Origin: a virus
Taxonomy: Duplodnaviria > Heunggongvirae > Uroviricota > Caudoviricetes
Strand: one strand, 5' to 3'
IMG/VR virus record: IMGVR_UViG_2563366935_000005
DNA: 37,387 nt
In this document: piece after piece, positions 3,949 through 27,243 of the stretch
How positions within the stretch are numbered: the first letter of the stretch is position 1
Layout of the letters: the number at the start of each line of letters is the position of its first letter
Program-made: the position numbers and the translations under genes
The notes under the pieces: model-generated
The model's input: the letters and a program-made list of their open reading frames with translations, nothing else
Database searches by the model: none
Told to the model about the DNA's origin: nothing

Positions 3949-4802
3949 GCACCATCCTGAAATGGGCGGGAAATAAAACCGCCATTATGCCAGAACTGAA
4001 AAAATACCTTCCTGCTGGCCCGCGACTGGTTGAACCTTTCGCGGGTTCCTGTGCTGTGATGATGGAAACGAATTATCCCAGCTATCTGGTTGCGGATATT
4101 AATCCTGATTTAATCAACCTCTATAAAAAGGTTGCCGCTGATTGTGAATCGTTTATATCTCGCGCCAGAGTTTTATTTGAGATCGCAAACAGGGAGGTGG
4201 CTTATTACAACATAAGGCAGGAGTTTAACTGCTCAACTGAAATTACTGATTTCATGAAAGCGGTATATTTCCTGTATCTCAATCGTCACGGTTACCGTGG
4301 TTTATGTCGCTATAACAAGAGCGGACATTTCAACATTCCCTACGGTAATTATAAAAATCCGTATTTCCCTGAAAAAGAACTTCGCACATTTGCAGAAAAA
4401 GCCCAGCGAGCAACGTTTATCTGCGCCAGCTTTGATGAAACGCTGACGATGTTGAAGGCGGGAGATGTGGTGTATTGCGATCCGCCATATGACGGTACGT
4501 TTTCCGGTTATCATACTGATGGTTTCACTGAAGATGACCAGTATCACCTGGCATCCGTTCTTGAACATCGGTCATCAGAAGGACATCCGGTCATTGTTTC
4601 TAACAGTGACACATCCCTGATCCGTTCGCTGTATCGCAATTTTACTCACCACTATATCAAGGTAAAACGCAGCATCGGTGTGGCAGCTGGCGAGGGTAAA
4701 TCAGCAACAGAAATCATTGCTGTTTCCGGGCCGCGCTGCTGGATGGGATTTGATTATTCGCGTGGCGTGGATAGTTCTGCCGTGTACGGAGTACGTGCAT
4801 GA
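3945..4802 (+). CDS. dam: DNA adenine methyltransferase (Dam-like N6-adenine MTase), 285 aa
   Basis: [12 protein letters not shown]-terminus, AdoMet motif PFAGSCAV and catalytic DPPY motif (VYCDPPYDG); ATGA overlaps with both neighbours. Confidence 0.85.
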
Positions 4803-7213
4803 GTCATGCCGATATGAACAACTGCTGCGGCTTTAACGAGGCTGCCGCAGCATTCTCATGGAACAGCCCGAAAAAGGCCATTAACCCTTATCTGGACCCG
4901 GCGGAAGTTGCGCCGGTTTCTACGCTTTCAAACCTGATCACTCTGTACGCTGCCGATAACGAGCAGGAACAGTTGCGCCGCGAGGCACTGAGTGATCAGG
5001 TCTGGGAGCGTTATTTCTTTAATGAATCACGTGATCCTGTCCAGCGCGAAATGGAGCAGGATAAGCTCATTAGCCGGGCAAAGCTGGCGCATGAGCAGCA
5101 GCGTTTTAATTCAGACATGGTCATTCTGGCGGACGTCAACGCCCAGCCTTCCCATATCAGCAAGCCGCTGATGCAACGTATTGAATACTTCAGCAGCCTG
5201 GGCAGGCCAAAGGCTTATTCCCGCTATTTACGTGAGACGATTAAGCCATGTCTGGAACGACTGGAGCATGTACGCGACAGTCAGCTATCTGCATCTTTTC
5301 GCTTTATGGCAAGCCATGAAGGGCTGGACGGCCTGCTGATCCTGCCTGAAATGAGTCAGGATCAGGTGAAACGCCTGTCCACCCTGGTAGCTGCGCATAT
5401 GAGTATGTGCCTTGATGCAGCTTGTGGTGATTTGTATGCCACCGATGACGTTAAGCCAGAAGAAATCCGCAAGACATGGGAAAAGGTGGCAGCGGAAACC
5501 CTGCGTCTGGATGTCATCCCACCTGCGTTTGAGCAACTCCGTCGGAAAAGAAACCGCCGTAAACCCGTGCCCTATGAACTCATTCCGGGTTCGCTGGCGC
5601 GTATGTTGTGCGCCGACTGGTGGTATCGGAAATTATGGAAGATGCGTTGCGAATGGCGGGAAGAGCAGTTGCGCGCTGTTTGCCTGGTCAGCAAAAAAGC
5701 ATCTCCTTATGTCAGCTATGAAGCCGTGATGCATAAACGTGAGCAGCGCCGTAAGTCGCTGGAGTTTTTCCGTTCTCATGAACTGGTGAACGAAGACGGC
5801 GACACGCTGGACATGGAGGATGTGGTAAACGCCAGCAGCAGCAACCCTGCGCATCGCCGCAATGAGATGATGGCCTGTGTTAAAGGTCTGGAGCTTATCG
5901 CGGAAATGCGCGGTGACTGCGCCGTTTTCTACACTATCACCTGTCCGTCGCGTTTCCATTCCACGCTAAATAACGGCAGACCAAACCCGACCTGGACAAA
6001 CGCGACGGTAAGACAAAGCAGCGATTATCTGGTCGGCATGTTTGCTGCATTTCGTAAGGCGATGCACAAAGCCGGGTTGCGCTGGTATGGCGTGCGGGTG
6101 GCTGAGCCGCATCATGATGGCACAGTTCACTGGCACCTGTTGTGTTTCATGCGCAAAAAAGACCGCCGTGCCATCACTGCATTACTGCGTAAGTTTGCCA
6201 TCCGTGAAGACCGCGAGGAGCTGGGCAATAACACTGGGCCGCGCTTTAAGTCTGAGTTGATTAACCCGCGCAAAGGAACGCCGACAAGCTACATCGCGAA
6301 ATATATCAGTAAGAACATTGACGGTCGTGGTCTGGCTGGCGAGATCAGCAAGGAAACGGGTAAATCTCTGCGTGATAACGCTGAATACGTGAATGCCTGG
6401 GCGTCTCTGCATCGTGTTCAGCAATTCCGCTTCTTTGGTATTCCGGGGCGTCAGGCTTACCGTGAACTTCGCTTGCTGGCTGGTCAGGCGGCAAGGCAAC
6501 AGGGTGACAAAAAAGCAGGTGCGCCGGTACTGGATAACCCGCGTCTTGATGCCATTCTGGCTGCTGCTGATGCTGGTTGTTTTGCCACCTACATCATGAA
6601 GCAGGGCGGCGTACTGGTTCCCCGTAAATATCACCTCATCAGAACCGCTTATGAAATCAACGAAGAGCCGACCGCCTATGGCGATCACGGCATTCGTATT
6701 TATGGCATCTGGTCACCCATTGCAGAGGGCAAGATCTGCACTCATGCAGTGAAGTGGAAAATGGTTCGTAAAGCCGTTGACGTTCAGGAGGCGGCAGCCG
6801 ACCAGGGCGCTTGCGCCCCTTGGACTCGTGGCAATAACTGTCCCCTTGCTGAAAATTTGTACCAACAAGGGAAAGACAAATCAGCTGATGGGGATACCAG
6901 AACGGATATCACCCGCATGGATGACAAGGAATTGCACGATTACCTGCACAGTATGAACAAAAAAGAGCGCCGGGAACTGGCTGCAAGGTTACGCCTGGTG
7001 AAACCGAAACGGCGTAGAGACTACAAACAGCGAATTACAGATCATCAGCGACAGCAGCTCGTCTATGAACTGAAGTCCAGAGGATTTGATGGCAGCGAGA
7101 AAGAGGTCGATTTACTCCTTCGCGGTGGCAGTATTCCGTCAGGAGCAGGCCTGCGTATCTTCTATCGGAACCAGCGTTTGCAGGAAGATGATAAGTGGCG
7201 GGATCTGTATTAA
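4799..7213 (+). CDS. A: Replication initiation protein A (rolling-circle nicking endonuclease, P2 gpA-like), 804 aa
   Basis: Large ORF at the end of the early operon; HUH-type motif [15 protein letters not shown] and [10 protein letters not shown] region; size similar to P2 A. Confidence 0.9.
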
Positions 7214-8004: not shown

Positions 8005-9204
8005 ATGTATCGTGTGTTGCTTTGGCAAAAAGGAGTTTTAGTGGACAACGGCTCAATCACCTTCTTTGATATTACTGCTTGTGGGTTTTATCGTTTAAAG
8101 AATAAACCCGAAGAGCTTGATTATAAATTCGGCGATCTTATGGGGGTTTTGGACGATTTAGAAGGGTGGCTCAAGGATAAAAATTTTGAGCAGACTCTCC
8201 CATGGAATAAAGAAGAACAACCTCTGCGAACACGAGTTTACAGTCGAGGCCTTGTGAGGGACAGCCAGACTAAAGATGCAGTAATTGTTTTATACCGTGA
8301 AGTGGGGAACGGTAACGGAATACATGGTATTAAGGTCGGTTCAAAAGTAAGTGGTGATAGTAAAGGAACCATTAGGGCGGGAAGAGAACATGGTGAGGAT
8401 AAAATAATTTGGGGTGAACCCTGCTATTACTGGATTATTCCTGAGTTGAATAAAATAGCATCAATCAGATTCCCCCATTCTTTCGCTGATACTTATCTCT
8501 TCGCACAATACTTCATTCAGCATGTAAATAATAATAGTAAGTTAGGTAAAAGAACGAAATCTAAGCGTACATTTGAATCAGCTAAGACCCCTGGTCGTTG
8601 TGTGGATGTCTACAATACTAAGTTTCAATATAAAGATGGCAAAAATGAGATAAACTGTATCTTCAAGTTTGTATTGGAAGAAACAAAACTTAAAGCCGCT
8701 GAGGAAAACTTTGAAAGGTTAAGGCATAAAATTACACACACATTGATAAAGGATACAACGGTAATAAACCAAAATGACACAAGGCAACCATTGTTGAAGC
8801 TAACAAGTGTAGCTTTAGCATCTCTGGTGGGTGAAGAAAAGCGTAATAAGCTTATTGGGGCACCTCCTGTTTTGGAGCGGCCTCGTAAAATTGAAGTTAA
8901 AATTGACGGTGCACCATCATCGGATGAGCTTCGAAATCTCTTCTCAATGAGAGGTGAAGAGTCTGAATGGGATGTGGGTTTTTTACTGGCTGATCGTGCT
9001 AATCCGGTTTGGCTCAGTAGCTATGTAGCCAGGACTAAACTTCCTCTTCAAGATTCGGATGGGTTTGAGCATTATTCAGCGCGTTTTTTACTGGATGAAA
9101 TAAACAAAATTCGTGATGATTTGATTAGTGAAGTAAAATATGCTGAGGAAGCATCCATTAAAGAATCTGAAGCTGCATCCACAAAAAAGATAGCGGAAGG
9201 TTGA
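8005..9204 (+). CDS. Hypothetical soluble protein (399 aa), first gene of a two-gene cargo cassette; candidate defence or abortive-infection sensor
   Basis: AT-rich ORF unrelated to P2 core genes; an alternative GTG start at 8041 has a strong AAGGAG RBS; stop TGA overlaps the ATG of the downstream membrane protein. Confidence 0.6.
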   Translation: MYRVLLWQKGVLVDNGSITFFDITACGFYRLKNKPEELDYKFGDLMGVLDDLEGWLKDKNFEQTLPWNKEEQPLRTRVYSRGLVRDSQTKDAVIVLYREVGNGNGIHGIKVGSKVSGDSKGTIRAGREHGEDKIIWGEPCYYWIIPELNKIASIRFPHSFADTYLFAQYFIQHVNNNSKLGKRTKSKRTFESAKTPGRCVDVYNTKFQYKDGKNEINCIFKFVLEETKLKAAEENFERLRHKITHTLIKDTTVINQNDTRQPLLKLTSVALASLVGEEKRNKLIGAPPVLERPRKIEVKIDGAPSSDELRNLFSMRGEESEWDVGFLLADRANPVWLSSYVARTKLPLQDSDGFEHYSARFLLDEINKIRDDLISEVKYAEEASIKESEAASTKKIAEG

Positions 9205-9205
9205 T

Positions 9206-9742
9206 ATGACAGAAACGGAAGGTTTGATAATAACAGTTGCAAAACAGCAGGCGATTAATTTTGTTGCTGTTGTTTTGTGCTGCGTTATAAGCTATTTTTC
9301 GTTCAAAAGTTTTTCCTATAATGATGCAAAAGATATTTTAGGTGCGCTTATAAATATTTCAGCATCTATATTCACTATTGTCGGTTTATGGGTCGGTTTT
9401 TTATATCCGAATGCAATGAATAGTATTGTTAAGGATGATGTAAGTTATATAAAAAATGAGCATGACTCACCAAGAATAGAGAAATTAGTTTATACAATAA
9501 TCACATCTGCTTGTGTTATGGCTGGGATTCTAATTTTCTTTTTGGTTAAGGCAGTGTTTTATGCATTACCTGTTTATCAAGCTAATAAAGACTTGTTTAA
9601 ATACATTGGTATTTTCTTCATTTACTTTATTAGCTGGATGCAATTAAAATGCGTTATGAGCCTGATTTTGAGTAATTTACATTTTGTTAATCACTTACAT
9701 GGACGTTTAGCAAAAGCGAAATTAGAACACTATGATGAATAA
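9206..9742 (+). CDS. Small polytopic membrane protein (178 aa, about four TM helices); candidate membrane effector of the cassette
   Basis: Four hydrophobic segments (about residues 17-33, 44-67, 94-121, 134-157); GGAAGG RBS; translationally coupled to the 399-aa ORF. Confidence 0.6.
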   Translation: MTETEGLIITVAKQQAINFVAVVLCCVISYFSFKSFSYNDAKDILGALINISASIFTIVGLWVGFLYPNAMNSIVKDDVSYIKNEHDSPRIEKLVYTIITSACVMAGILIFFLVKAVFYALPVYQANKDLFKYIGIFFIYFISWMQLKCVMSLILSNLHFVNHLHGRLAKAKLEHYDE

Positions 9743-9887
9743 AGTGTTCGTATTGGCAGGAGTTACTGTGGATGTTTAACCTCAACAAGAGTAAGCCTCT
9801 TTTAACATGGGAATCACCGTTCTAACAAGCTTTGCATGTCTATGCTGCATGAATCCGCATGATCGTTTTAGGATCGTTTTTGCTGAG

Positions 9888-9915
9888 GCCCGCCAGAACT
9901 GGCGGGCTTTTGCTT
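9888..9915 (+). terminator. Rho-independent terminator after the cargo cassette
   Basis: GC-rich hairpin gcccgccag-aa-ctggcgggc followed by ttttgctt. Confidence 0.6.
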
Positions 9916-9956
9916 ATGTCATGCACCTGCATGAAAACCACTACATAAAGCGGGCA

Positions 9957-9975
9957 GGCGTGGCGGGGATACGAG
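9957..9975 (+). other. Candidate cos site (ggcgtggcggggatacgag)
   Basis: First 13 nt match my recollection of the 186 cohesive end (P2-type cos begins GGCGAGGCGGGGA); lies between the right-end cargo and the Q-side genes as expected. The 3' part differs, so this is tentative. Confidence 0.3.
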
Positions 9976-9985
9976 CGCGCGCTCA

Positions 9986-10014
9986 CTGACAGTTTTCAGA
10001 AAAGTATATATAAT
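9986..10014 (+). promoter_or_regulatory. Sigma70-like promoter for the DUF4062-like gene (-35 CTGACA, 17-bp spacer, -10 TATAAT)
   Basis: Hexamers and spacing read directly; about 38 bp upstream of the ATG at 10052. Confidence 0.5.
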
Positions 10015-10051
10015 CGCCTGAAAGATCTATACGTGCAGTGGAAATCATCAA

Positions 10052-11086
10052 ATGGATAAAAGATATCAGGTTTTTGTTAGTTCAACTTTTGCTGATCTTG
10101 AAGAAGAAAGACAGGAAGTAATGCAAGCACTGCTGGAGCTTGATTGTATGCCAGCAGGAATGGAATTATTTCCAGCAACAAATAGTGATCAGTGGAGTTT
10201 AATAAAAAAAATAATTGACGATAGTGATTATTATATTGTTATCTTGGCAGGGCGTTATGGTTCAATTGGTCCTGATGGAATAAGCTATACAGAAATGGAG
10301 TATCGTTATGCTTTGGAAACTGGTAAGCCAGTTATAGGTTTTATTCATAAAGATAAAAGTAACCTCCCCGCAAAACGTTGTGAGTCAAACCCTGAAGGCG
10401 TAGAAAAACTAAAGGCTTTCGAAGAGCTAGTTAAAACAAAATTATGTCGTTTTTGGGAGTCTCCTGCAGAATTAGGTAGCCAGGTTAGCAGAAGTTTGAT
10501 TAGACTAATTAAAGAATGTCCTGCAATTGGGTGGGTTAAAGGAAATTTAGTAACTAATGATGGTGATGCAAAGGAAATATTGAAATTAAAAAGGCGAATT
10601 GAGGAGCTTGAAAGTCAACTTGTATCAAGTATGACTGAAGCGCCTGCAGGTGCAGAAAAACTATCTCAAGGAGATGAGCTTTTTGAATTGGATTATGAAT
10701 TCTGTGTGTCGCCTACAGAATGGAGACATAATGGTGAAGAATATACCGATAAGGTCAAATTAAGCTGGAACGATATTTTTTCATATGTTTCGCCTTTGAT
10801 GATAGATGAGATAGTGGATGATAAGCTATATAGTGCTTTAAATAACTGTGTGCGAAATGCAGTTCAAGATATCATCTATGAGGATTTTAAAGATATGAAT
10901 TTATTATCTTTAAAAGTATCTAATTCTGATTTTCAAACAATAAAAGTGCAGTTTAGGGCGCTTGGGTTAATTATTAAAAGTGAAAAGAGTAGAAGTGTTA
11001 AAGATAAAGGTACTTATTGGACTTTAACACCGTATGGCGAAAATTTAATGACAACATTGAGAGCGATTAAAAAAACTTTGGTATAG
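10052..11086 (+). CDS. DUF4062-like N-terminal domain protein (344 aa) with an uncharacterised C-terminal region containing a coiled-coil-like segment; candidate single-gene defence protein
   Basis: N-terminus YQVFVSSTFADLEEERQEVMQALLELDCMPAGMELF...ILAGRYGS matches the DUF4062 pattern as I recall it; AT-rich; own promoter and terminator; not part of the P2 core gene set. Confidence 0.6.
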   Translation: MDKRYQVFVSSTFADLEEERQEVMQALLELDCMPAGMELFPATNSDQWSLIKKIIDDSDYYIVILAGRYGSIGPDGISYTEMEYRYALETGKPVIGFIHKDKSNLPAKRCESNPEGVEKLKAFEELVKTKLCRFWESPAELGSQVSRSLIRLIKECPAIGWVKGNLVTNDGDAKEILKLKRRIEELESQLVSSMTEAPAGAEKLSQGDELFELDYEFCVSPTEWRHNGEEYTDKVKLSWNDIFSYVSPLMIDEIVDDKLYSALNNCVRNAVQDIIYEDFKDMNLLSLKVSNSDFQTIKVQFRALGLIIKSEKSRSVKDKGTYWTLTPYGENLMTTLRAIKKTLV

Positions 11087-11090
11087 ATAA

Positions 11091-11126
11091 CAAAGGCCGT
11101 TCATATATGAACGGCCTTTGTTTTAT
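11091..11126. terminator. Bidirectional rho-independent terminator between the DUF4062-like gene and Q
   Basis: Perfect hairpin caaaggccgttca-tatat-tgaacggcctttg with a T-run on the plus strand and an A-run upstream. Confidence 0.7.
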
Positions 11127-12157
11127 TGTGTGGGAAAGCTATATGATTCGAATTTTATAATAACTTTACCAAGCCATTTATTTACTTCTTGTATATGCTT
11201 TTGCAGTGGTGTTAGCTCATTTCGCACAAAGACGCGGCTGGCCTTCTCCACATCCCCAAACCCCCCGACATTATTAGGCATAATCCCCATCATTTGCGGT
11301 GGCACACGATGCGCCGCCATCATGTCATCCCGGCTCACGTTCTTGATATTCAAAAACTCATCCTTCGCTGCGACCTCTGACAACGGGATAATCTGAAGCC
11401 CGTCCTTTTTGCCGTTAGGCGAGTACATAAACAGGTTGCGGAAGTTGCCTGGACCTTTGGCGCTTTTCATCGCGTTGCGGAGGTTGTTCACATCCTCCTG
11501 GTTCTGCGCGGCATCGGTCATATACATGATGAAGCCTGCATGACTGCCGTTAATGTAATACTTGCGGCGGAACAGCGTGGCAGACTCGTTGAGCAGGGCG
11601 GATGGAATAGCAGAAAGATAACCGGGCAGGCCGTAGATCTCCTGGTTGATGTCCGGTTCCATCAGATGAAAGATGCTGCCTTTCGTGAACTGATATGGCT
11701 GCGTGGTCATACCGTATTGCACAAACCAGTAGGTATCCAGGTCTAACCCGCGTCGGGTGTATTTTGCCAGGGCAGGTTCAAGGGCGATAACTTCACCGAA
11801 GCGGTTCGTGCGTTTCTCCAGGTAGGCGTTACCAAATACCAGATAGTCCTGCACAAAACGCGAAAAAGCCTGCTGGCTGAGCAGCGGGTGAGGGATGTAG
11901 GTGCTGGTCAGAATGTTGCACTTTACTGCAATCGGGGAACTATGATGCACGGCAGCGCGGAAGGTGCGCGCCAGTCCGTCAAAGCTGACGGGCGGTTCAT
12001 ACCAGCGGTCCATCTGTACGCATTCCACATAATCCAGCAGTTCTCGGCGGTCCAGAACAGGAACGGGATCGCCGAAGCTGAATGCTTCGGCTGTAGTTTG
12101 ACTTTTAAGCTGGATCTGTTTCGTCGCCGCAGCGCGGTTCTTCTTACTCTTTCCCAT
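11123..12157 (-). CDS. Q: Portal protein (P2 gpQ-like), 344 aa
   Basis: Length equals P2 Q; conserved position next to the terminase gene P; ATG at 12155-12157 overlaps the P stop. Confidence 0.9.
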   Translation of the reverse strand: MGKSKKNRAAATKQIQLKSQTTAEAFSFGDPVPVLDRRELLDYVECVQMDRWYEPPVSFDGLARTFRAAVHHSSPIAVKCNILTSTYIPHPLLSQQAFSRFVQDYLVFGNAYLEKRTNRFGEVIALEPALAKYTRRGLDLDTYWFVQYGMTTQPYQFTKGSIFHLMEPDINQEIYGLPGYLSAIPSALLNESATLFRRKYYINGSHAGFIMYMTDAAQNQEDVNNLRNAMKSAKGPGNFRNLFMYSPNGKKDGLQIIPLSEVAAKDEFLNIKNVSRDDMMAAHRVPPQMMGIMPNNVGGFGDVEKASRVFVRNELTPLQKHIQEVNKWLGKVIIKFESYSFPTQ

Positions 12158-13923
12158 CAAAAAATCTCCACAATATTGCTGGTATTGGCGGATTCGCCCT
12201 GCAGCGGTTCGTTAAACAGTGCGTGCATCGTTGCCCAGGCCAGATCGGCGTGGCTGGCTTCTTCGCTGCGGCTGGCTTCATAGGTCGGGCGGTTGCCACT
12301 GGCGGTGGTGGCGCGACGGATTGCCATAAAGGACTGCGCTATGTCGGTGTGTCCGGCGTCAAACTCCAGACGGCGGTGGCTGATAATGTCGTAGGCCTTG
12401 AGTACCAAGGCGTTTTTAACGTTGGGGTTGTAGACAAACTCCCGGACGGCAGGAAAAAACGCTTTCACGTTCTCGTAAACCCCGTGACCAACGCCGGTTG
12501 AGTCGATACCGATATAGGTCACGTTGTACTGTTCGGTCAGTTTTTTGATGGCGTCAGCCTGGGCGCGGAAGTCCATTCCGCGCCACTGGTGACGCTCAAG
12601 AATGCGGAACTTACCGCCCGGCACGGCTGGCGGCGCCACCACCACGCATCCGGCGCTGTCGCCGTTCTGCGTACCTTTCGCCGGGTCATATCCGATCCAC
12701 ACTTCGCGCCAGCCAAACGGGCGCAGGGCCAGTGCATGAAAGTCGGTCCAGACTTCCCAACTGTCCACCATGCACGCCTGCAGCTCGCTGAGCGGGAACA
12801 CAGACGCGAGATCGTCCACGAACTCACACATCAGCAGGTTCTGGTATTCGTCCGGGCTGTACTCCATGCGCAACTGGTCGAGGTCGAACAGGTTACAGCC
12901 GCCGCGCACCGCATCTTCCACAGTGACTATCTGGCGGTACTGCCCGTCTGCGCACAGCAGGCCGGGGGCCAGATTGCTGTGGGACAGGTCGATGTCCACC
13001 TTATCGGCTTTGTTGCGCCCTCGGTTGAACAGTGCACCGGACCAGAACGGATAAGCACTGTGTGTCAGGCTGGATGGCGTGGAAAAATAGGTTTGTCGCC
13101 ATTTTTTGTGAATAGCCATACCGGAAGCCACTTTGCGCAGCTCCTGGAATTTCGGTATCCAGAAATATTCATCCAGATACAGGTTGCCGTGGTAACTCTG
13201 GGCCGTGCGGGCATTGGTGCCGAGGAAGTACAGTGTGGCCCCGTTAGGAAGCACCATCGGATCGCCTTTCAGCTCCACCTCCACTTCTTTGGCGAAGTCG
13301 ATGATGTACTGCTTAAAGACGTGGGCCTGAGCCTTGCTGGCGGAAAGGAAAATCTGGTTACGCCCGGTTAGCAGGGCGTCAATCAGGGCTTCACGGGCAA
13401 AATAGAAGGTCGCGCCGATCTGGCGTGACTTCAGCAGGTTGCGGATGCGGTTGGTTTTTCCGGCTTCCCACCAGTGGCGCTGGTAGTTGAACATGGAGGA
13501 ATGGAAGATTTCTTCCAGCTTCTCAATCTGTTCATCGGTGAAAACGTTCTTTTCCGGCTGACGGCGCGGGCCTTTGTTGCGGTTGGCGACGTTAGGGTTT
13601 AAGTCGGCTTCGTTGCCGCCATTGTTAAACTTGCCGATCCGCGCATGGCGCTCCGACTGGCGCGCCAGCAGGTCAATCTCTTTGAAATCTTTCCCTTCTT
13701 TGTGCTCCTTCATAATGAGCTGACAGTAGCGTGCGGCGGTGGTGAGCTGCATCTGATCCAGCGGCCCATAGTCACCCCACTTGTCGCGTTTTTTCCAGCT
13801 GTGAACGGTTGCAACTTTCTCGCCCAGCATTTCAGCAATGCGGGCGACGCGGTATCCCTGAAAGTACAGCAGCATGGCCTGCCGACGGGGATCGAGATCT
13901 GCGGGTGTCAGTGTGGTGTTCAT
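12157..13923 (-). CDS. P: Terminase large (ATPase) subunit (P2 gpP-like), 588 aa
   Basis: Size and position match P2 P; divergent from O across a late-promoter region. Confidence 0.9.
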   Translation of the reverse strand: MNTTLTPADLDPRRQAMLLYFQGYRVARIAEMLGEKVATVHSWKKRDKWGDYGPLDQMQLTTAARYCQLIMKEHKEGKDFKEIDLLARQSERHARIGKFNNGGNEADLNPNVANRNKGPRRQPEKNVFTDEQIEKLEEIFHSSMFNYQRHWWEAGKTNRIRNLLKSRQIGATFYFAREALIDALLTGRNQIFLSASKAQAHVFKQYIIDFAKEVEVELKGDPMVLPNGATLYFLGTNARTAQSYHGNLYLDEYFWIPKFQELRKVASGMAIHKKWRQTYFSTPSSLTHSAYPFWSGALFNRGRNKADKVDIDLSHSNLAPGLLCADGQYRQIVTVEDAVRGGCNLFDLDQLRMEYSPDEYQNLLMCEFVDDLASVFPLSELQACMVDSWEVWTDFHALALRPFGWREVWIGYDPAKGTQNGDSAGCVVVAPPAVPGGKFRILERHQWRGMDFRAQADAIKKLTEQYNVTYIGIDSTGVGHGVYENVKAFFPAVREFVYNPNVKNALVLKAYDIISHRRLEFDAGHTDIAQSFMAIRRATTASGNRPTYEASRSEEASHADLAWATMHALFNEPLQGESANTSNIVEIF

Positions 13924-14065: not shown

Positions 14066-14899
14066 ATGACAGTGAAAGCAAAGCGTTTTCGCATCGGGGT
14101 GGAAGGTGCCACCACCGATGGACGCGAAATCCAGCGTGAATGGCTGGAACAGATGGCAGCCAGCTACAACCCGGCGGTGTATACCGCGCTGATTAACCTT
14201 GAGCACATCAAGTCTTATCTGCCGGACAGCACCTTTAACCGCTACGGCAAGGTGACGGCGCTGTTTGCTGAAGAAATCACGGAAGGTCCGCTGGCAGGCA
14301 AGATGGCGCTGTATGCCGACGTTGAGCCAACGGAGTCCCTGGTGGAGCTGGTGAAAAAAGGCCAGAAATTATTCACCTCTATGGAAGTCAGCCCGAAGTT
14401 CGCTGATACGGGCAAAGCCTACCTGGTCGGCCTGGCTGCCACTGATGACCCTGCCAGTCTGGGCACTGAAATGCTGACATTCAGCGCCAGTGCAGCCCAT
14501 AACCCGCTGGCAAACCGCAAGCAGAATCCTGCCAATCTCTTTACCGCTGCAGAGGAAACGGTGATCGAACTGGAAGAAATCCAGGAGGACAAACCGTCCC
14601 TGTTTGCCCGTGTCACGGCGCTGTTCACCAAAAAAGAGCAGTCCGATGACGCCCGGTTCTCTGATGTGCATAAGGCCGTGGAACTGGTCGCCACTGAGCA
14701 GCAGAACCTGAGTGCGCGCACCGAAAAATCCCTGTCTGAGCAGGAAGAACGCCTGTCTGAGCTGGAGACTGCCCTGCAGGCACAGCTGACCGCCTTTAAC
14801 GAACTGGTGGACAAGCTGAGCCATGAAGACAGCCGCCAGGACTACCGCCAGCGTGCAACAGGCGGTAACGCCCCCGCTGACACTCTGACCAATTGCTGA
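14066..14899 (+). CDS. O: Capsid scaffolding protein (P2 gpO-like), 277 aa
   Basis: Position and size; Glu/Ala-rich helical C-terminal half typical of scaffold proteins. Confidence 0.85.
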   Translation: MTVKAKRFRIGVEGATTDGREIQREWLEQMAASYNPAVYTALINLEHIKSYLPDSTFNRYGKVTALFAEEITEGPLAGKMALYADVEPTESLVELVKKGQKLFTSMEVSPKFADTGKAYLVGLAATDDPASLGTEMLTFSASAAHNPLANRKQNPANLFTAAEETVIELEEIQEDKPSLFARVTALFTKKEQSDDARFSDVHKAVELVATEQQNLSARTEKSLSEQEERLSELETALQAQLTAFNELVDKLSHEDSRQDYRQRATGGNAPADTLTNC

Positions 14900-15977: not shown

Positions 15978-16628
15978 ATGAGCCTGAGTCCCGCACGGCA
16001 GCATCGCCTGCGCGTTCAGGCTGAACAGGCCGCTCGTGAGGGCGGCAGTGTTCGCCACGCGTCGGGCTATGACCTGATGCTGCTGCAACTGGCGGAAGAC
16101 CGCCGCCGTCTCAAGGGCGTTCAGTCCACGGTGAAAAAAGCGGAAATAAAGGTGGAGCTGCTGCCGAAATATGCCGCCTGGGCGGAGGGCGTCCTGGCTG
16201 CCGGAGGCGCTCAACAGGATGACGTGCTGATGTACGTGATGCTGTGGCGCATTGATGCCGGAGATTATGCCGGGGCGCTGGAGATCGGGCGTCATGCCCT
16301 GCGTCATGGCTGGGTGATGCCGCTGGGTAACCGCAACGTGCAGACCGTGCTGGCAGAGGAAATGGCAGATGCAGCGCAGAGCGCAATGCTTGCCGCCACC
16401 GGCTTTGATGCCGATCTGTTGCTGCAGACGCTGGAGCTGACAGACGGTCTGGATATGCCGGACCAGTCACGGGCGCGTCTGCATAAAGCGATTGGCGCTG
16501 TCCTGAGTGAAAGCAATCCGGCGTCCGCCCTTAATCATCTCAACCATGCGTTACAGCTCGATCCCCGCTGTGGCGTGAAAAAAGACAAACAGCAGCTGGA
16601 GCGCAGACTGCGCAATGACAGCCGCTGA
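15978..16628 (+). CDS. M: Terminase small (endonuclease) subunit (P2 gpM-like), 216 aa
   Basis: Position after N and motifs shared with P2 M (VMLWRIDAGDYAGALEI...). Confidence 0.85.
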   Translation: MSLSPARQHRLRVQAEQAAREGGSVRHASGYDLMLLQLAEDRRRLKGVQSTVKKAEIKVELLPKYAAWAEGVLAAGGAQQDDVLMYVMLWRIDAGDYAGALEIGRHALRHGWVMPLGNRNVQTVLAEEMADAAQSAMLAATGFDADLLLQTLELTDGLDMPDQSRARLHKAIGAVLSESNPASALNHLNHALQLDPRCGVKKDKQQLERRLRNDSR

Positions 16629-19873: not shown

Positions 19874-19919
19874 CTTTGATAACCGTAATCAGAATTTTGT
19901 CAGTTCGGTTTAATGTGAG

Positions 19920-21209
19920 TCAATTGGTAAAAATTCTACTCTGCTCACCATAGCTGTCCTTTGCTTCGTTAATCAGATCCTCCCATGGCCATTTTATGGT
20001 TACATATTTTCGATAAATTAAAATGGTTCTGTCGATAGCAGTGACCTCATCAGTTGCATCATTGTAGGAAAGAACTAACCCTCTATCGTCACTATCAACC
20101 TGTAACTCTTCAATTTTTTGAAGTACAGTTCGCAGATTCCCTTTTAATATTCGACTTTGTCTTCTTGACGCAATTTTAAAAATGGTATCTAACTCTAATC
20201 CTTGAATGAGTTCTTTATCGGATGAGTCCATTATTACAGCCATGGCATGAGCATAAATGCCAGTGGTTTCTGTTCTTTTACGTATTCCTGATGATATATC
20301 TTTAGCAAATTTTTGATATCGAGAATTTAATTGTTCAGCATATTTCATGGCTGCATCAACGAATTTTTCTTGATCATCTAACATCGTTAATGTTGTACAT
20401 TCCTCATCAATTCCTGTCTCGTCAAGAATGTTTAAGGCTAGTTGTTGTAAAATCCCAACATTACCATAGCAATCATCAAGGATGCATCTCTTTATATGAT
20501 CTGAGAACTTAACTTTTAAAGTTTCTGATCCACTTATTATTACTTGTTCAAGATCGGCTCTAGACCATGATATGGGAATTTCTTCTATGCGAGAACCAAG
20601 GTCAGAATTTAAATAAATTAGTAGGTTTGTTTTTGTCCAAACACCAATGATTACGAAAAAACAACCATAATCCCAAAGCGCCTTTAAGTCATAAGCAAAT
20701 ATTTGTCGTTCACGAGTGTTTAAGTAGTGAAAATCTTCAATAACTACTTTTCTTCCTGCTTCGTTAATTATTTCTGCAATAAATCTCAAATCATTAATAT
20801 CTTGACCAACATTTCCTTTTTTTATTACCTCCTCTTCAGAGGTCTCAAGTCCAAATTTAACCTTTAGTTTTGCTATAAGACCAATGCCTCCTGCAGCAGA
20901 GCCCTCCATTACGCCTTTAATTGTATCTTTTTCGGTTCTCTCTAGCACAAGGCTTATACCTAATTGAGATAGAATATCTATATATATATCTAAAACGGTT
21001 GTCTTTAATCTGCATTGTACAACAATAGCATTAGGTATGTTCTTTTGTCTTAACCATGACTTACCACATTTGGATTCCCCTCTTAAGGCGAGATGTATTG
21101 GTCGGCGTAATTTTCTACTGATTTCCTTATCAAGATTTCCTCTGTCTACATATGAATCAGCAAGAATCGTTGGTGAAATACCAAAAACTTCGTGTGTTTG
21201 TTTCTTCAT
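19920..21209 (-). CDS. Stand-alone P-loop NTPase (429 aa) encoded antisense in an AT-rich moron between S and V; candidate defence or abortive-infection ATPase
   Basis: Walker A GESKCGKS near residue 45 and a Walker B-like hhhhDE (KVVIEDFH); ATG at 21207-21209 with GAGG RBS; opposite strand to the late operons; at the position where P2 carries its variable orf30. Confidence 0.65.
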   Translation of the reverse strand: MKKQTHEVFGISPTILADSYVDRGNLDKEISRKLRRPIHLALRGESKCGKSWLRQKNIPNAIVVQCRLKTTVLDIYIDILSQLGISLVLERTEKDTIKGVMEGSAAGGIGLIAKLKVKFGLETSEEEVIKKGNVGQDINDLRFIAEIINEAGRKVVIEDFHYLNTRERQIFAYDLKALWDYGCFFVIIGVWTKTNLLIYLNSDLGSRIEEIPISWSRADLEQVIISGSETLKVKFSDHIKRCILDDCYGNVGILQQLALNILDETGIDEECTTLTMLDDQEKFVDAAMKYAEQLNSRYQKFAKDISSGIRKRTETTGIYAHAMAVIMDSSDKELIQGLELDTIFKIASRRQSRILKGNLRTVLQKIEELQVDSDDRGLVLSYNDATDEVTAIDRTILIYRKYVTIKWPWEDLINEAKDSYGEQSRIFTN

Positions 21210-21229
21210 GATGGCCTCACTATCCGTTT

Positions 21230-21247
21230 TGTACTGTTTATCACACA
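21230..21247. promoter_or_regulatory. Ogr-type late activator box TGT-N12-ACA upstream of V
   Basis: tgt actgtttatcac aca, centred about 55 bp upstream of the V start; lies in the divergent region shared with the antisense NTPase gene. Confidence 0.5.
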
Positions 21248-21293
21248 AACAATACTAAAGGAAAGCCGCTTTCTTTTAATTAACTATATCCAT

Positions 21294-23123: not shown

Positions 23124-23721
23124 TCTGCTGCCACCGGGTTCAACGCCACTGGAGCGCCGACTGGCGCAAACCTGCAACGGGATTTCTGATCTGCAGGTGT
23201 CACTGCGTGACTTGTGGAATCCGGCAACCTGTCCGGTCAGTTTCCTGCCTTATCTCGCCTGGGCGTTCTCTGTGGATCGCTGGGACGAGGGCTGGACAGA
23301 AAGCGTCAAACGCCAGGTAGTGAAGGATGCTTTTTATATTCATCAGCACAAAGGAACCACCAGTGCCGTACGGCGGGTGGTGGAGCCGTTCGGCTTCCTG
23401 ATCCGCATTATTGAGTGGTGGCAGACCGGAGAAACACCGGGCACGTTTCGCCTGGACATTGGTGTGCAGGACCAGGGCATCACTGAAGATACCTATCTGG
23501 AACTTGAGCGACTGATAAGCGATGCCAAACCATGTAGCCGTCACATGATCGGCATGTCCATCAATCTGCAGACCAGCGGCCCGCATTGGGTGGGAGCCGT
23601 CAGTTATCTTGGCGAAGAAATCACGATCTATCCGTATATCAACGAAACAATTATTTCCGGCGGCACCGCGCATGAAGGCGGGGCGGTCCATGTTATTGAC
23701 ACAATGAGAGTGAATCCATGA
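23116..23721 (+). CDS. I: Baseplate/tail protein I, 201 aa
   Basis: Position between J and H; overlapping starts typical of the P2 baseplate operon. Confidence 0.8.
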   Translation: MNSLLPPGSTPLERRLAQTCNGISDLQVSLRDLWNPATCPVSFLPYLAWAFSVDRWDEGWTESVKRQVVKDAFYIHQHKGTTSAVRRVVEPFGFLIRIIEWWQTGETPGTFRLDIGVQDQGITEDTYLELERLISDAKPCSRHMIGMSINLQTSGPHWVGAVSYLGEEITIYPYINETIISGGTAHEGGAVHVIDTMRVNP

Positions 23722-25115
23722 GCACAAAATTTTATACCCTGCTGACGGATATTGGCGCGGCGAAACTTGCCAGCGCCGCCGCGCTCGGTGTGCCGCTAAA
23801 AATTACCCATATGGCGGTGGGCGATGGCGGCGGAGCATTGCCAACGCCGGACGCAAAGCAGACGGCACTGGTAAATGAGAAACGCCGGGCTGCGCTGAAT
23901 ATGCTCTATATCGACCCGCAGAACAGCAGCCAGATTATTGCTGAACAGGTGATCCCTGAAAATGAGGGGGGTTGGTGGATACGTGAAGTGGGTCTGTTTG
24001 ATGAGTCCGGGGCATTGATTGCCGTAGGCAACTGCCCGGAAAGCTATAAGCCGCAACTGGCTGAAGGCAGCGGGCGCACCCAGACCGTGCGCATGGTGCT
24101 GATTACCAGCAGTACGGACAATATCACCCTGAAAATCGACCCTGCTGTAGTGCTGGCAACCCGTAAATACGTGGATGATGAAGTCCTGGAATTAAAGCTG
24201 TATGTGGATGACCAGATGAGAAACCACATTGCCGCACAAGATCCTCATACCCAGTATGCGCAGAAACATAATCCGACATTTACCGGAGAACCAAAAGCGC
24301 CGACGCCTGCAGCAGGAAATAACACCACGCGGATTGCGACCACTGAGTTTGTTCAGGCCGCTATTACTGCTCTGATTAACGGTGCGCCAGCCACGCTGGA
24401 CACACTGAAAGAAATTGCCGCAGCCATTAACAATGACCCGAAATTCAGTACCACCATTAACAATGCGCTGGCACTAAAAGCGCCGCTGTCGAGTCCGGCA
24501 CTCACCGGAACGCCAACAGCACCTACTGCGGCGCAGTCGGTCAACAATACACAGATTGCCACTACGGCTTTTGTGAAATCGGCGATTGCAGGAATGGTGG
24601 GTTCTGCACCTGCGGCACTGGATACACTGAACGAACTGGCGGCGGCACTGGGGAATGATCCGAACTTTGCCACGACAATGCTTAATGCGCTGGCAGGTAA
24701 ACAACCGCTGGACAATACGCTTACCAATTTGAGTGGAAAGGATGTAGCTGGTCTTCTCACATACCTTGGTTTGGGAGAATTATCTCTGGCTGGCACTGCA
24801 TCGGGTGTCATTGGTCTGAATGGGTATGTAACGATTCCGTTAATTATTTCAGGTTCCCGGAGAACACTGATTATTCAGTGGGGGCAGGCGAGATTTGGTG
24901 GGTCTGGTGGTGAAGATGCCGGATATCTTAATGATTTTCCTTTTGCCTTTCCGTCAGCATGTAATGGGGTGATAGTTAGTCATGTGGGGTATACACCTTC
25001 AGGCGCAGGAATCCTGTCGGCTTCTGCAATTACATCAAATCAGTTCCGCGGTTTTTCAAGCATAGCGACTGCTGCAAACGCTGTATTTGGTCGTTATATC
25101 GCTATAGGGGTGTAA
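23718..25115 (+). CDS. H: Tail fibre protein H (constant N-terminus plus currently expressed variable C-terminus), 465 aa
   Basis: P2 H-like N-terminus (MSTKFYTLLTDIGAAKLA...); two internal repeats (TRIATTEFVQAAITALINGAPATLDTLKEIAAAINNDPKF and TQIATTAFVKSAIAGMVGSAPAALDTLNELAAALGNDPNF); contains an invertase crossover site near codon 350. Confidence 0.85.
   Translation: MSTKFYTLLTDIGAAKLASAAALGVPLKITHMAVGDGGGALPTPDAKQTALVNEKRRAALNMLYIDPQNSSQIIAEQVIPENEGGWWIREVGLFDESGALIAVGNCPESYKPQLAEGSGRTQTVRMVLITSSTDNITLKIDPAVVLATRKYVDDEVLELKLYVDDQMRNHIAAQDPHTQYAQKHNPTFTGEPKAPTPAAGNNTTRIATTEFVQAAITALINGAPATLDTLKEIAAAINNDPKFSTTINNALALKAPLSSPALTGTPTAPTAAQSVNNTQIATTAFVKSAIAGMVGSAPAALDTLNELAAALGNDPNFATTMLNALAGKQPLDNTLTNLSGKDVAGLLTYLGLGELSLAGTASGVIGLNGYVTIPLIISGSRRTLIIQWGQARFGGSGGEDAGYLNDFPFAFPSACNGVIVSHVGYTPSGAGILSASAITSNQFRGFSSIATAANAVFGRYIAIGV
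24754..24779. repeat. Hin/Gin-type recombination site 1 (ttctcacatacc tt ggtttgggagaa), left end of the invertible segment
   Basis: 26-bp imperfect palindrome resembling hix/gix sites; its right arm plus centre (ttggtttgggagaa) is repeated in inverted orientation at 26596-26609. Confidence 0.5.
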
Positions 25116-25116
25116 T

Positions 25117-25554
25117 ATGTTTTATAGTCCATCTTTAAACATTTTTGTGAATCCTGCACTTAAGGATGATTACATTAATGCAAATTCATGGCCAGATGAT
25201 GCTCTGGCTATCAGTGATGATGTTTATAATGAATTTGCAATAAATACGCCCCCAGATGGCAAAATTCGTGTTGCAGGAGAAAATGGATTACCCACATGGG
25301 CACTAATACCTCCACCATCACATGAAGAACTTATTCAACAGGCAGAATCAGAAAGGCAATTATTGCTTAATCTGGCCAACGAATACATGAACAGTAAACA
25401 ATGGCCCGGTAAAGCCGCTATTGGTCGTCTGAAAGACGAGGAACTGGCGCAATATAATTTGTGGCTGGATTACCTGGACGCACTGGAGCTGGTTGATACC
25501 TCCAGTGGGCCAGATATTGAATGGCCTACGCCTCCGGCAGTTCAGGCCAGATGA
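25117..25554 (+). CDS. G: Tail fibre assembly chaperone (G/Tfa-like), 145 aa
   Basis: Immediately after H; conserved Tfa C-terminal region (NLWLDYLDALELVDTSSGPDIEWP). Confidence 0.75.
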   Translation: MFYSPSLNIFVNPALKDDYINANSWPDDALAISDDVYNEFAINTPPDGKIRVAGENGLPTWALIPPPSHEELIQQAESERQLLLNLANEYMNSKQWPGKAAIGRLKDEELAQYNLWLDYLDALELVDTSSGPDIEWPTPPAVQAR

Positions 25555-26128
25555 CATCCGGCGCTGTGCTGGTATCTGTTGCCGTCACCGCGTCAATGTA
25601 ATCCAGCACAGTGTTAAGTCGGGTGGTCTCTGCCTGCATCAGCTGCCGCCCGGCCTGCAATTTAAGTTGAATCAGACTGATGGAAGCCATTGCAGTATTA
25701 ATCAGTGACTGACGCTGTACTTCTGCCGCGTCTACTGCGGCGCTATGCTGTGCCTCAGTATCGGTCACCCATTTCTTACCATCCCATTTATCGAATGGCG
25801 TTAACGGGGCGATAGTGGTTGTATTTTCAGGATAATCACCCGGAGCTGTGATTTCTTTGGCGTCTCCCGTTTCGGTGTTATAGACGATTTCACCGCGATG
25901 GTCTGGCACATATTCCCATGAGTTTAAATCCATCGAACGGCAGATAGCATAACCCGCCTTATGTATACCAGGTTCATCCAGACAGGAATATGCTGGGATA
26001 CCGACACCAATGGCAAGATATTCATTTGAAGTAGAAATATATTCCCGAGTTTTACCATCATAGTTATAGACGGTAATATTCCCCGCCTTCGTGGCAATAA
26101 GCTCGCTATTTAATACGGCGTTATCCAT
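25526..26128 (-). CDS. Alternative tail fibre assembly chaperone (Tfa'), inside the invertible segment, 200 aa
   Basis: Opposite strand, converging on G; C-terminus (NTVLDYIDAVTATDTSTAPDVIWPELPEA) parallels that of G. Confidence 0.7.
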   Translation of the reverse strand: MDNAVLNSELIATKAGNITVYNYDGKTREYISTSNEYLAIGVGIPAYSCLDEPGIHKAGYAICRSMDLNSWEYVPDHRGEIVYNTETGDAKEITAPGDYPENTTTIAPLTPFDKWDGKKWVTDTEAQHSAAVDAAEVQRQSLINTAMASISLIQLKLQAGRQLMQAETTRLNTVLDYIDAVTATDTSTAPDVIWPELPEA

Positions 26129-26649
26129 TATGCAGCCCTCACGATATAGTTAAATGCAATATTTCGTGGACGGGTTTCACTCCCGCCAGTATTACCGATA
26201 CTCCCTCGTGAATGAAGTGTCGGTGATGGGATCAGACTCCCTCCTGTATTTGTGGCATCAAGTCCCCGTCCTTGTGTGTATGTCTTTTTGAAAATCGTAG
26301 CCAGTTCCCATTCATCTTTTGTGTCGTAACCATCATTGGCAACAACAATATGGCGGTGTTTTTCCAGCATCCCTGTCTGAATGCTCAATAAAACACGTCC
26401 TGCATCAATACCGCGCCCGTCATCCCAGCCACGAATAAACTCACCACGTAAATCAGGCAATTTATTTGTCGGATAAGCCTTTGCCAGTTCCGGGTATTCT
26501 TCAGCAGAAAAATCCGCACCGTTGCATTTCAGCCAGCCTGTTGGCGGTGTGGCTGAAGGCCATGGAACAGGCACACCAACAGGTAATGCAGAGCCTTCTC
26601 CCAAACCAACGTTTAAGAAAATGCAGCGATTACGACTAACTGGCATCAT
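26128..26649 (-). CDS. Alternative tail-fibre C-terminal receptor-binding segment (H'), expressed only after inversion fuses it to H
   Basis: Shares the GLGE junction residues with H at the crossover; tail-collar-like motifs (LKCNGADFSAEEYPELAKAY...LPDLRGEFIRGWDDGRGIDAGR); has no promoter or constant N-terminus of its own in this orientation. Confidence 0.65.
   Translation of the reverse strand: MMPVSRNRCIFLNVGLGEGSALPVGVPVPWPSATPPTGWLKCNGADFSAEEYPELAKAYPTNKLPDLRGEFIRGWDDGRGIDAGRVLLSIQTGMLEKHRHIVVANDGYDTKDEWELATIFKKTYTQGRGLDATNTGGSLIPSPTLHSRGSIGNTGGSETRPRNIAFNYIVRAA
26596..26621. repeat. Hin/Gin-type recombination site 2 (ttctcccaaacc aa cgtttaagaaaa), right end of the invertible segment
   Basis: Inverted copy of the site-1 arm; located at the 5' end of H' and just upstream of the invertase gene. 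Confidence 0.5.
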
Positions 26650-26676
26650 CCCCGGTTTTTATTCAGGAGATTGATC

Positions 26677-27243
26677 ATGCTTATTGGCTATGTACGCGTG
26701 TCAACAAATGACCAGAACACCGATTTGCAACGTAATGCACTGAACTGCGCGGGATGTGAGCGGATTTTTGAGGACAAAATCAGTGGCACTAAGTCCGACA
26801 GACCGGGGCTTAAAAAACTGCTCAGGACACTATCGGCAGGTGACACACTGGTTGTCTGGAAGCTGGACAGGTTGGGGCGCAGTATGCGGCATCTTGTTAC
26901 GCTGATAGAAGAGTTGCGCCAGCGCGGCGTGAATTTCCGAAGCCTGACTGACAGTATTGATACCAGTACCCCAATGGGCCGTTTCTTTTTTCATGTCATG
27001 GGTGCCCTGGCTGAAATGGAACGCGAACTGATAGTTGAACGTACCAGGGCAGGGCTGGCTGCAGCTCGTGCTAAAGGCAGAGTAGGTGGACGCCGTCCTA
27101 AGTTGACTACCGAACAGTGGGCACAGATTGGGCGTTTACTCGAGGCCGGAGAATCAAGACAGCGTATTGCACTGATTTTTGATGTAGGCGTTTCTACCAT
27201 TTATAGAAAATTTCCGGCAAATAAGAGCAATGAATCTCCCTGA
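26677..27243 (+). CDS. Serine recombinase DNA invertase (Hin/Gin/Cin/Pin family), 188 aa
   Basis: N-terminal catalytic motif LIGYVRVSTNDQ with the Ser nucleophile; C-terminal HTH; AGGAGA RBS; adjacent to the invertible tail-fibre segment. Confidence 0.85.
   Translation: MLIGYVRVSTNDQNTDLQRNALNCAGCERIFEDKISGTKSDRPGLKKLLRTLSAGDTLVVWKLDRLGRSMRHLVTLIEELRQRGVNFRSLTDSIDTSTPMGRFFFHVMGALAEMERELIVERTRAGLAAARAKGRVGGRRPKLTTEQWAQIGRLLEAGESRQRIALIFDVGVSTIYRKFPANKSNESP

Follow-up and report, generated by a model that had tools for sequence, protein, structure and literature searches.

The window analysed here, a stretch of 37,387 nt, consists of a P2-like prophage and its right chromosomal flank. The 150-bp block at 9833-9982 almost certainly serves an intact P2-like (Felsduovirus/E. 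coli-HS-type) prophage as its functional cos site. The block lies in a 309-bp intergenic region (9743-10051) for which the original prediction had proposed a cos function. This reading is now supported by an ungapped alignment to the termini of P2, 186, PSP3 and P4, and by the identity of the allele to those of phage SEN8 and the prophage of E. coli HS. The cos allele, its mapping and the surrounding hotspot have all been published; hence, the feature is a correctly identified known thing, and the cos site is an ordinary one that involves no new biology. Our additions are descriptive refinements: a 150-bp footprint, family-wide phasing of TGCAT repeats, a palindrome that doubles as a terminator, and explicit re-assortment of two cargo slots.

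The sequence GGCGTGGCGGGGA at 9957-9969 occurs once in the window, counting both strands, and ~0.001 occurrences would be expected by chance. It had been noted as a match to the start of the 19-nt cohesive end of P2/186-type phages, and it indeed matches all 13 positions of the invariant part. Thus, GGCG(A/T)GGCGGGGA, the invariant cohesive-end start of P2-family (Peduoviridae) cos sites, which P2, 186, PSP3 and P4 share as their first 13 nt, is present at 9957. The complete 19-nt 5ʹ cohesive end (cosN), GGCGTGGCGGGGATACGAG, spans 9957-9975 on the + strand and is neither the P2 nor the 186 allele: identity is 19/19 with SEN8 and HS, 15/19 with 186 and PSP3, and 14/19 with P2; P4 falls in the same 14-15/19 range. 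At cohesive-end positions 14-19 the window has TACGAG, as compared with AAGCAC in P2 and P4 and AAGCAT in 186 and PSP3. The statement that the 6 nt following the motif differ is therefore roughly right: four of the six positions differ from 186.

Alignment with the cos regions of P2 and 186 was gap-free. The circular junctions were rebuilt, and the anchor points were the termini known from experiment for P2, 186 and PSP3, plus P4. By homology, the alignment predicts a top-strand nick between 9956 and 9957 and a bottom-strand nick between 9975 and 9976. The shared sequence comprises TGCAT(G/T)AAAACC...AAAG(C/T)GGGC(A/G) on the right-end side, the cohesive end, and then (C/T)GCGCGC. In a separate blastn comparison, the linear records of PSP3, EtG and SEN8 all ended on window position 9956, the base before GGCG. 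A 55-bp conserved cos core of P2 and P4 was described by Ziermann and Calendar (1990), as cited in PMC3931495 and PMC5694545. This P2/P4-shared core around the nicks (-29 to +26) aligns without gaps to 9928-9982, and its identity to the window is 55/55 in HS, 54/55 in SEN8, 45/55 in PSP3, 44/55 in 186, 43/55 in P4 and 42/55 in P2. A search of the rest of the window found no second P2-like cos match.

As judged from viral contigs and from the identity to SEN8 and HS, the divergent 3ʹ part of the 19-mer represents an allele that is common in nature. A scan of viral contigs with a degenerate pattern returned at least 120 cos-like sites, and the window allele is the commonest among the matches listed, occurring in 37 of 120 contigs. 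Cohesive-end alleles among the matches listed form a graded series of endings: AAAGCAC, AAAGCAT, ATAGCAT, ATAGCAC, AGAGCAT, ATACGAT and ATACGAG. The cohesive end of a Stenotrophomonas P2-like phage reads ...GAGACGAG. Context could be assigned for 33 of the 37 listed contigs with the window allele, and all 33 are phage; none of the 37 has homologues of P4 psu, sid, delta or alpha.

Published annotations place the same 19-mer at phage ends. The cos of the Salmonella phage SEN8 is GGCGTGGCGGGGATACGAG (Genome Announc 2017, PMC5427200), although this annotation, like that of the Cartapus cos, is labelled “putative” and was assigned by homology. For the inducible prophage of E. coli HS, the cos is given as 5ʹ-GGCGTGGCGGGGATACGAG-3ʹ at 926016-926034 (Zünd et al. 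2021, Microbiome 9:77, PMC8008629 Suppl. Table 4), and we confirmed this sequence at those coordinates in the HS genome (NC_009800). The HS mapping comes from start-site analysis/PhageTerm after mitomycin C, and is a short-read supplementary-table entry rather than a biochemical end determination.

The prophage in the window closely resembles that of E. coli HS. Both are inserted next to ybjL, both have the order DinI - cargo - cos - cargo - portal, and backbone DNA identity is 95.5-97.8% (~97%). The large terminase subunit gpP (12157-13923, - strand; Pfam Terminase_5, Terminase_6N and Terminase_6C), the expected cutter of cos, is identical to the HS protein at 588 of 588 residues. The small subunit gpM (15978-16628, + strand; Pfam Phage_term_smal), which is expected to recognize cos, is 99.5% identical. 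Both subunits are stop-free with full-length Pfam matches, and their identity to the P2 proteins is 63% for gpP and 49% for gpM. With the same gpP, a gpM that is 99.5% identical and a core that matches at 55/55 positions, the enzyme and substrate are the same as in a phage whose ends have been mapped. Virion ends at GGCGTGGCGGGGATACGAG have been shown for the HS phage, and by proxy the window prophage would have the same ends. In the window, none of the 40 HS backbone genes is truncated or interrupted by a stop. At an inferred ~34.7 kb, the genome exceeds the HS prophage by ~3.2 kb; the DNA in SEN8 virions measures 35.2 kb. The HS prophage differs in its cargo on both sides of cos and in the distal block, which is only ~90% identical.

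The location of the block also fits a P2-family cos, which adjoins the portal-terminase operon. The window opens with an integrase gene (1-1131, - strand), followed by the repressor and early genes. Replication gene A (gpA; 4799-7213) precedes a DinI-like gene, and the first backbone gene past the left-end cargo slot is that for the portal gpQ (11123-12160, - strand; Pfam Phage_portal; 95.9% identical to HS gpQ and 61% to P2 gpQ). After gpP come the scaffold gene O (starting at 14066), the capsid gene N, gpM, and then lysis and tail genes. Further right are ogr, then the att core (34610) and, from the host chromosome, ybjL, ybjM and grxA. Hence, the order around cos is gpA - DinI - cargo - cos - cargo - Q(-) - P(-) - O - M, which is the order in P2 and in E. 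coli HS. In P2, 186 and PSP3 the interval from cos to the portal gene is devoid of genes, and these phages have extra left-end sequence in common that is absent from the window.

How far does the site extend beyond the 55-bp core? Among the matches listed, 34 distinct contigs have the same 19-mer, and their per-position identity to the window rises from ~25% to 76-100% at 9833 and drops after 9982. Consistent with this, blastn matches in 93 phage records are confined to query positions 91-240. The nick divides the block so defined into 124 bp that belong to the right genome end and 26 bp that belong to the left; the edges of the block enclose the published core. The block is present in 1272 of 5426 complete E. 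coli genomes. The three elements named in the original prediction, a terminator, direct repeats and GCATG motifs, all fall inside the conserved block, as fits their membership of cos; the individual roles discussed below are inferred.

GCATG or CATGC occurs five times in 9833-9956, which bears out the several gcatg motifs noted earlier. Nowhere else in the window are these motifs so dense (expectation 0.21 per 124 bp; Poisson P ~3e-6). Three of the motifs form phased TGCATG-type repeats (9833-9861, + strand) at -124 (9833-9838), -111 (9846-9851) and -101 (cGCATG, 9856-9861), and the left boundary of the block coincides with the first. TGCAT is found at -124, -111 and -101 in every cohesive-end class among the matches listed, including P2-type, 186-type and satellite contigs, and the right ends of P2, 186, PSP3 and P4 have the phased repeats at the same distances from the nick. 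By analogy with cosB, these repeats are a candidate gpM binding array; our literature search found no relevant cosB-type account for P2. Closer to the nick, at 9919-9934 (-37/-29), there is an inverted TGCAT pair, TCATGCA-cc-TGCATGA, followed by AAAACC. Among the matches listed, ATGCA at -36 and TGCAT at -29 are found in 55-100% of members in nearly all classes, and the pair is a candidate terminase recognition site.

The terminator proposed at 9888-9915 (+ strand) is real as a structure: GCCCGCCAG (9888-9896) and CTGGCGGGC (9899-9907) form a GC-rich palindrome with 9-bp arms, followed by TTTTGCTT to 9915. Both a repeat finder and RNA folding recover it. As RNA, the 9888-9915 hairpin has a predicted folding energy of -23.6 kcal/mol (z = -5.0), and none of 200 shuffled sequences was as stable. 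A simple terminator scan did not report this + strand hairpin, probably owing to its loop rule, and returned only a weak - strand site at 9953-9938. Relative to the nick, the palindrome is at -69 to -50. Palindromes of the CGCCAGnnCTGGCG type are found at the same distance in 186, PSP3, P4 and most cohesive-end classes; in 186, PSP3 and P4 the GC-rich palindrome is at about -66 to -53. A T-run follows the palindrome in 21 of 34 class members among the matches listed, and we take the T-run in the window to indicate an intrinsic terminator for rightward transcripts from the right-end cargo. Thus, the palindrome probably doubles as a terminator and as a conserved sub-element of cos.

The loop of the palindrome varies between relatives: GCCCGCCAG-AA-CTGGCGGGC is found in 13 contigs and the version with -TT- in seven, as well as in HS. 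The palindromic 20-mer is therefore present as its own reverse complement among relatives, which suggests hairpin-mediated inversion of the cos palindrome.

Between the phased repeats and the palindrome, GATCGTTTT occurs twice on the + strand, at 9861-9869 and 9872-9880. These are the direct gatcgtttt repeats described previously, and they are 11 bp apart, with two Dam sites and phased T-tracts. They are 74-100% conserved in this cos class, except for the spacer base 9869, and are specific to it, being absent from P2 and 186. Their arrangement may confer an intrinsic bend.

The nick positions are bracketed by two short conserved motifs. GCGGGCA (9950-9956, + strand), directly 5ʹ of the top-strand nick, is 94-100% conserved, and its counterpart in P2, P4, 186 and PSP3 is GCGGGCG or G(C/T)GGGCA. 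CGCGCGC (9976-9982; GCGCGCG on the bottom strand) is directly 5ʹ of the bottom-strand nick and provides the last conserved bases of the block; YGCGCGC is found in P2, P4, 186, PSP3, SEN8 and HS. Conservation of YGCGCGC in our contig set is by construction, since it was part of the search pattern, but the loss of identity after 9982 is not. GCGGGCA and GCGCGCG have a loose two-fold arrangement around the nicks, and are candidate nick half-sites by analogy with lambda cos.

As a side observation on the block, positions 9834-9982 are 90.7% identical to the corresponding HS block, as compared with ~97% for the flanking backbone. This suggests that the cos block itself has been exchanged with another phage lineage by recombination.

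Given the cos, the physical ends of the prophage virion genome are fixed, and both accessory modules lie at the extreme ends. The genes on the two sides are those described originally, as Pfam and PADLOC comparisons corroborate, and their placement follows from the P2 map convention: a DUF4062 gene at the left genome end and a two-gene cassette at the right. With a nick between 9956 and 9957, 95 nt separate the left end from the start of the DUF4062 gene, and 214 nt lie between the end of the cassette and the right end. The cassette (8005-9204 and 9206-9742, + strand) resembles the PADLOC candidate defence system PDC-M18A/B (E 9.7e-31 and 2.8e-18), and its products have no Pfam match. The left-end gene (10052-11086, + strand) encodes a 344-aa protein with a Pfam DUF4062 domain (E 1.5e-29) and no PADLOC match. 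Our literature search found no functional data on an anti-phage role for this cargo. Just outside the conserved block, at 9986-10014 (+ strand), is a promoter-like CTGACA-17-TATAAT (11/12). This site travels with the DUF4062 gene in seven E. coli genomes, and it is part of the DUF4062 module, not of cos.

Both modules are rare. Of 5426 complete E. coli genomes, eight have the PDC-M18-like cassette and seven have the DUF4062 module, annotated as a DUF4062 domain-containing protein; none has the two together. In all seven DUF4062-module genomes the 1140-bp query matches two places, so these chromosomes may contain a second copy of part of the module. ECCWS199, Res13 and HS each have different cargo around cos: in strain ECCWS199 the right cassette is that of the window and the left slot holds an AIPR gene, and strain Res13 has DUF4062 on the left with other genes on the right. 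The terminase of E. coli ECCWS199 (NZ_CP032237.1) is annotated as a truncated pseudogene and the exact 19-mer is absent; this element has the look of a degenerating phage of that type.

The two flanks of cos re-assort independently. Among the matches listed, 37 elements with the identical 19-mer have 20 right-flank and 27 left-flank types in 35 combinations, which makes cos a conserved island between two independently exchanging slots. A cos-adjacent anti-phage hotspot of P2-like phages, between gpA and gpQ, has been published (Rousset et al. 2022, PMC9122126; also Odegrip 2006; and PMC13586616), and ORFs between cosL and the Q homologue had been noted as a hotspot earlier (PMC5694545). The window conforms to it, with variable defence-like cargo between gene A and gene Q, beside cos; the content of the gpA-gpQ interval varies, and both cargo regions are unrelated to those of HS despite the ~97% backbone identity. 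The difference is that the published accounts describe a single hotspot, whereas the window and its relatives have two independent slots split by cos. This split is a refinement and not a new phenomenon. That cos ends may promote exchange of cargo at the hotspot has likewise been proposed already (Rousset et al. 2022, PMC9122126). We put forward tentatively, with more doubt than confidence, that the cos block may be a fixed anchor that splits the gpA-gpQ hotspot into two slots, with exchange through recombinogenic terminase-made ends, or else that the phased TGCAT array of P2-, 186- and Fels-2-type phages and P4 may be a gpM recognition element. The practical use of these observations is in annotation of the element, and the neighbouring cargo can be read as members of a known cos-adjacent hotspot.

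Could the block be a relic, in a prophage that is defective or whose variant cohesive end is no longer cut, so that nothing is packaged? The cohesive end does depart from P2 and 186 at 4-5 of 19 positions, the C-terminus of the integrase is altered relative to HS, and the ECCWS199 element, with the same right cassette, combines a truncated terminase pseudogene with the loss of the exact 19-mer. However, the inducible HS prophage is cut at this very 19-mer, within the same 55-bp core, gpP is identical and gpM nearly identical to the HS proteins, the 40 backbone genes are intact, and the integrase retains its catalytic RYAHL region. The allele is also the commonest in viral contigs, among the matches listed. 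We therefore regard a relic as very improbable.

Two further readings would assign the conserved island to something other than DNA cleavage. The 150-bp block might serve mainly as a terminator/insulator or as an anchor for cargo exchange, with a likeness to cos limited to the 19-mer and the true recognition site elsewhere. The strong terminator hairpin within the block speaks for such a role, as does the free re-assortment of the flanks in 35 combinations of 20 right and 27 left types in 37 elements, among the matches listed. These roles are nonetheless compatible with cos function. Moreover, the TGCAT positions and the core are common to P4, whose only overlap with P2 is cos (PMC9122126), the window contains no other P2-like cos match, and the boundaries of the block enclose the published 55-bp core; this reading is extremely improbable. 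The probability that the block instead encodes a small RNA ending at the 9888-9915 terminator is close to negligible. A conserved intergenic sequence that ends in a strong intrinsic terminator might resemble such a gene, but conservation runs 70 bp beyond the terminator into the cohesive end, there is no promoter-like site upstream inside the block, and no Rfam family reaches threshold (the best, the rnk leader, scores 21.7 bits against a gathering threshold of 55, E 0.29). The Rfam scan covered 9600-10200 with a permissive E-value and yielded nothing meaningful, and the RNA-gene reading was dropped.

How would the site work as a cos? After excision and replication, a terminase of gpM and gpP would recognize the ~150-bp region and introduce two nicks 19 nt apart, between 9956 and 9957 on the top strand and between 9975 and 9976 on the bottom strand. 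P2 terminase reportedly uses circular monomers. One genome length would then be packaged, giving virion DNA with 5ʹ single-stranded ends, GGCGTGGCGGGGATACGAG and its complement, that would re-anneal after injection. From conservation and by analogy with lambda cosB/cosN, we propose that gpM binds the TGCAT array and that gpP nicks at the two half-sites. The palindrome and T-run would end transcription from the right-end cargo and thereby insulate cos. Because cos as a whole occupies just 150 bp, its flanks can vary freely, and they would act as two cargo slots at the physical ends of the virion genome, exchanged independently by recombination.

In phage lambda, terminase makes staggered nicks in a cos site that is flanked on one side by recognition repeats. 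The likeness of the window site to lambda cos (cosQ-cosN-cosB) is functional only, and consists of staggered terminase nicks and an array of recognition repeats on one flank. The two sequences are not similar, the overhang (by homology) measures 19 nt as opposed to 12 nt in lambda, and the candidate recognition array in the window falls on that side of the nick which becomes the right genome end. The terminase subunits are those of P2-type phages, gpM/gpP (Phage_term_smal, Terminase_5/6N/6C), not Nu1/A. The working of lambda-type cos sites is treated in PMC4669245.

Other parts of the prophage also differ from the HS prophage. A 350-bp stretch beside attL, where HS has a small hypothetical gene, is missing from the window. 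Owing to this, the last six residues of the HS integrase are replaced in the window by 13 others, SGDKVAAAVGITP; the region of the catalytic Tyr (RYAHL) is retained. The window begins exactly at the stop codon of the integrase ORF (1-44 region), and attL is expected ~87 nt further left, outside the window.

Between tail genes S and V, at the position of P2 orf30, there is a 1.4-kb insertion relative to the HS prophage (19879-21288), which constitutes a third cargo slot of the window prophage. The product of its - strand ORF (19920-21248, 442 aa) lacks any Pfam domain and resembles the PADLOC candidate defence family PDC-S59 (E 1.9e-197). The tail-fibre region (23718-27243) differs from that of the HS phage as well. 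It contains the fibre gene H (23718-25115) and an assembly gene (25117-25554), followed by an alternative fibre C-terminus in the opposite orientation (26128-26649, - strand) with its own assembly gene (25526-26128, - strand), and by a Hin/Cin-type serine invertase (26671-27243; Pfam Resolvase and HTH_7). From this gene arrangement, 23718-27243 looks like an invertible host-range segment.
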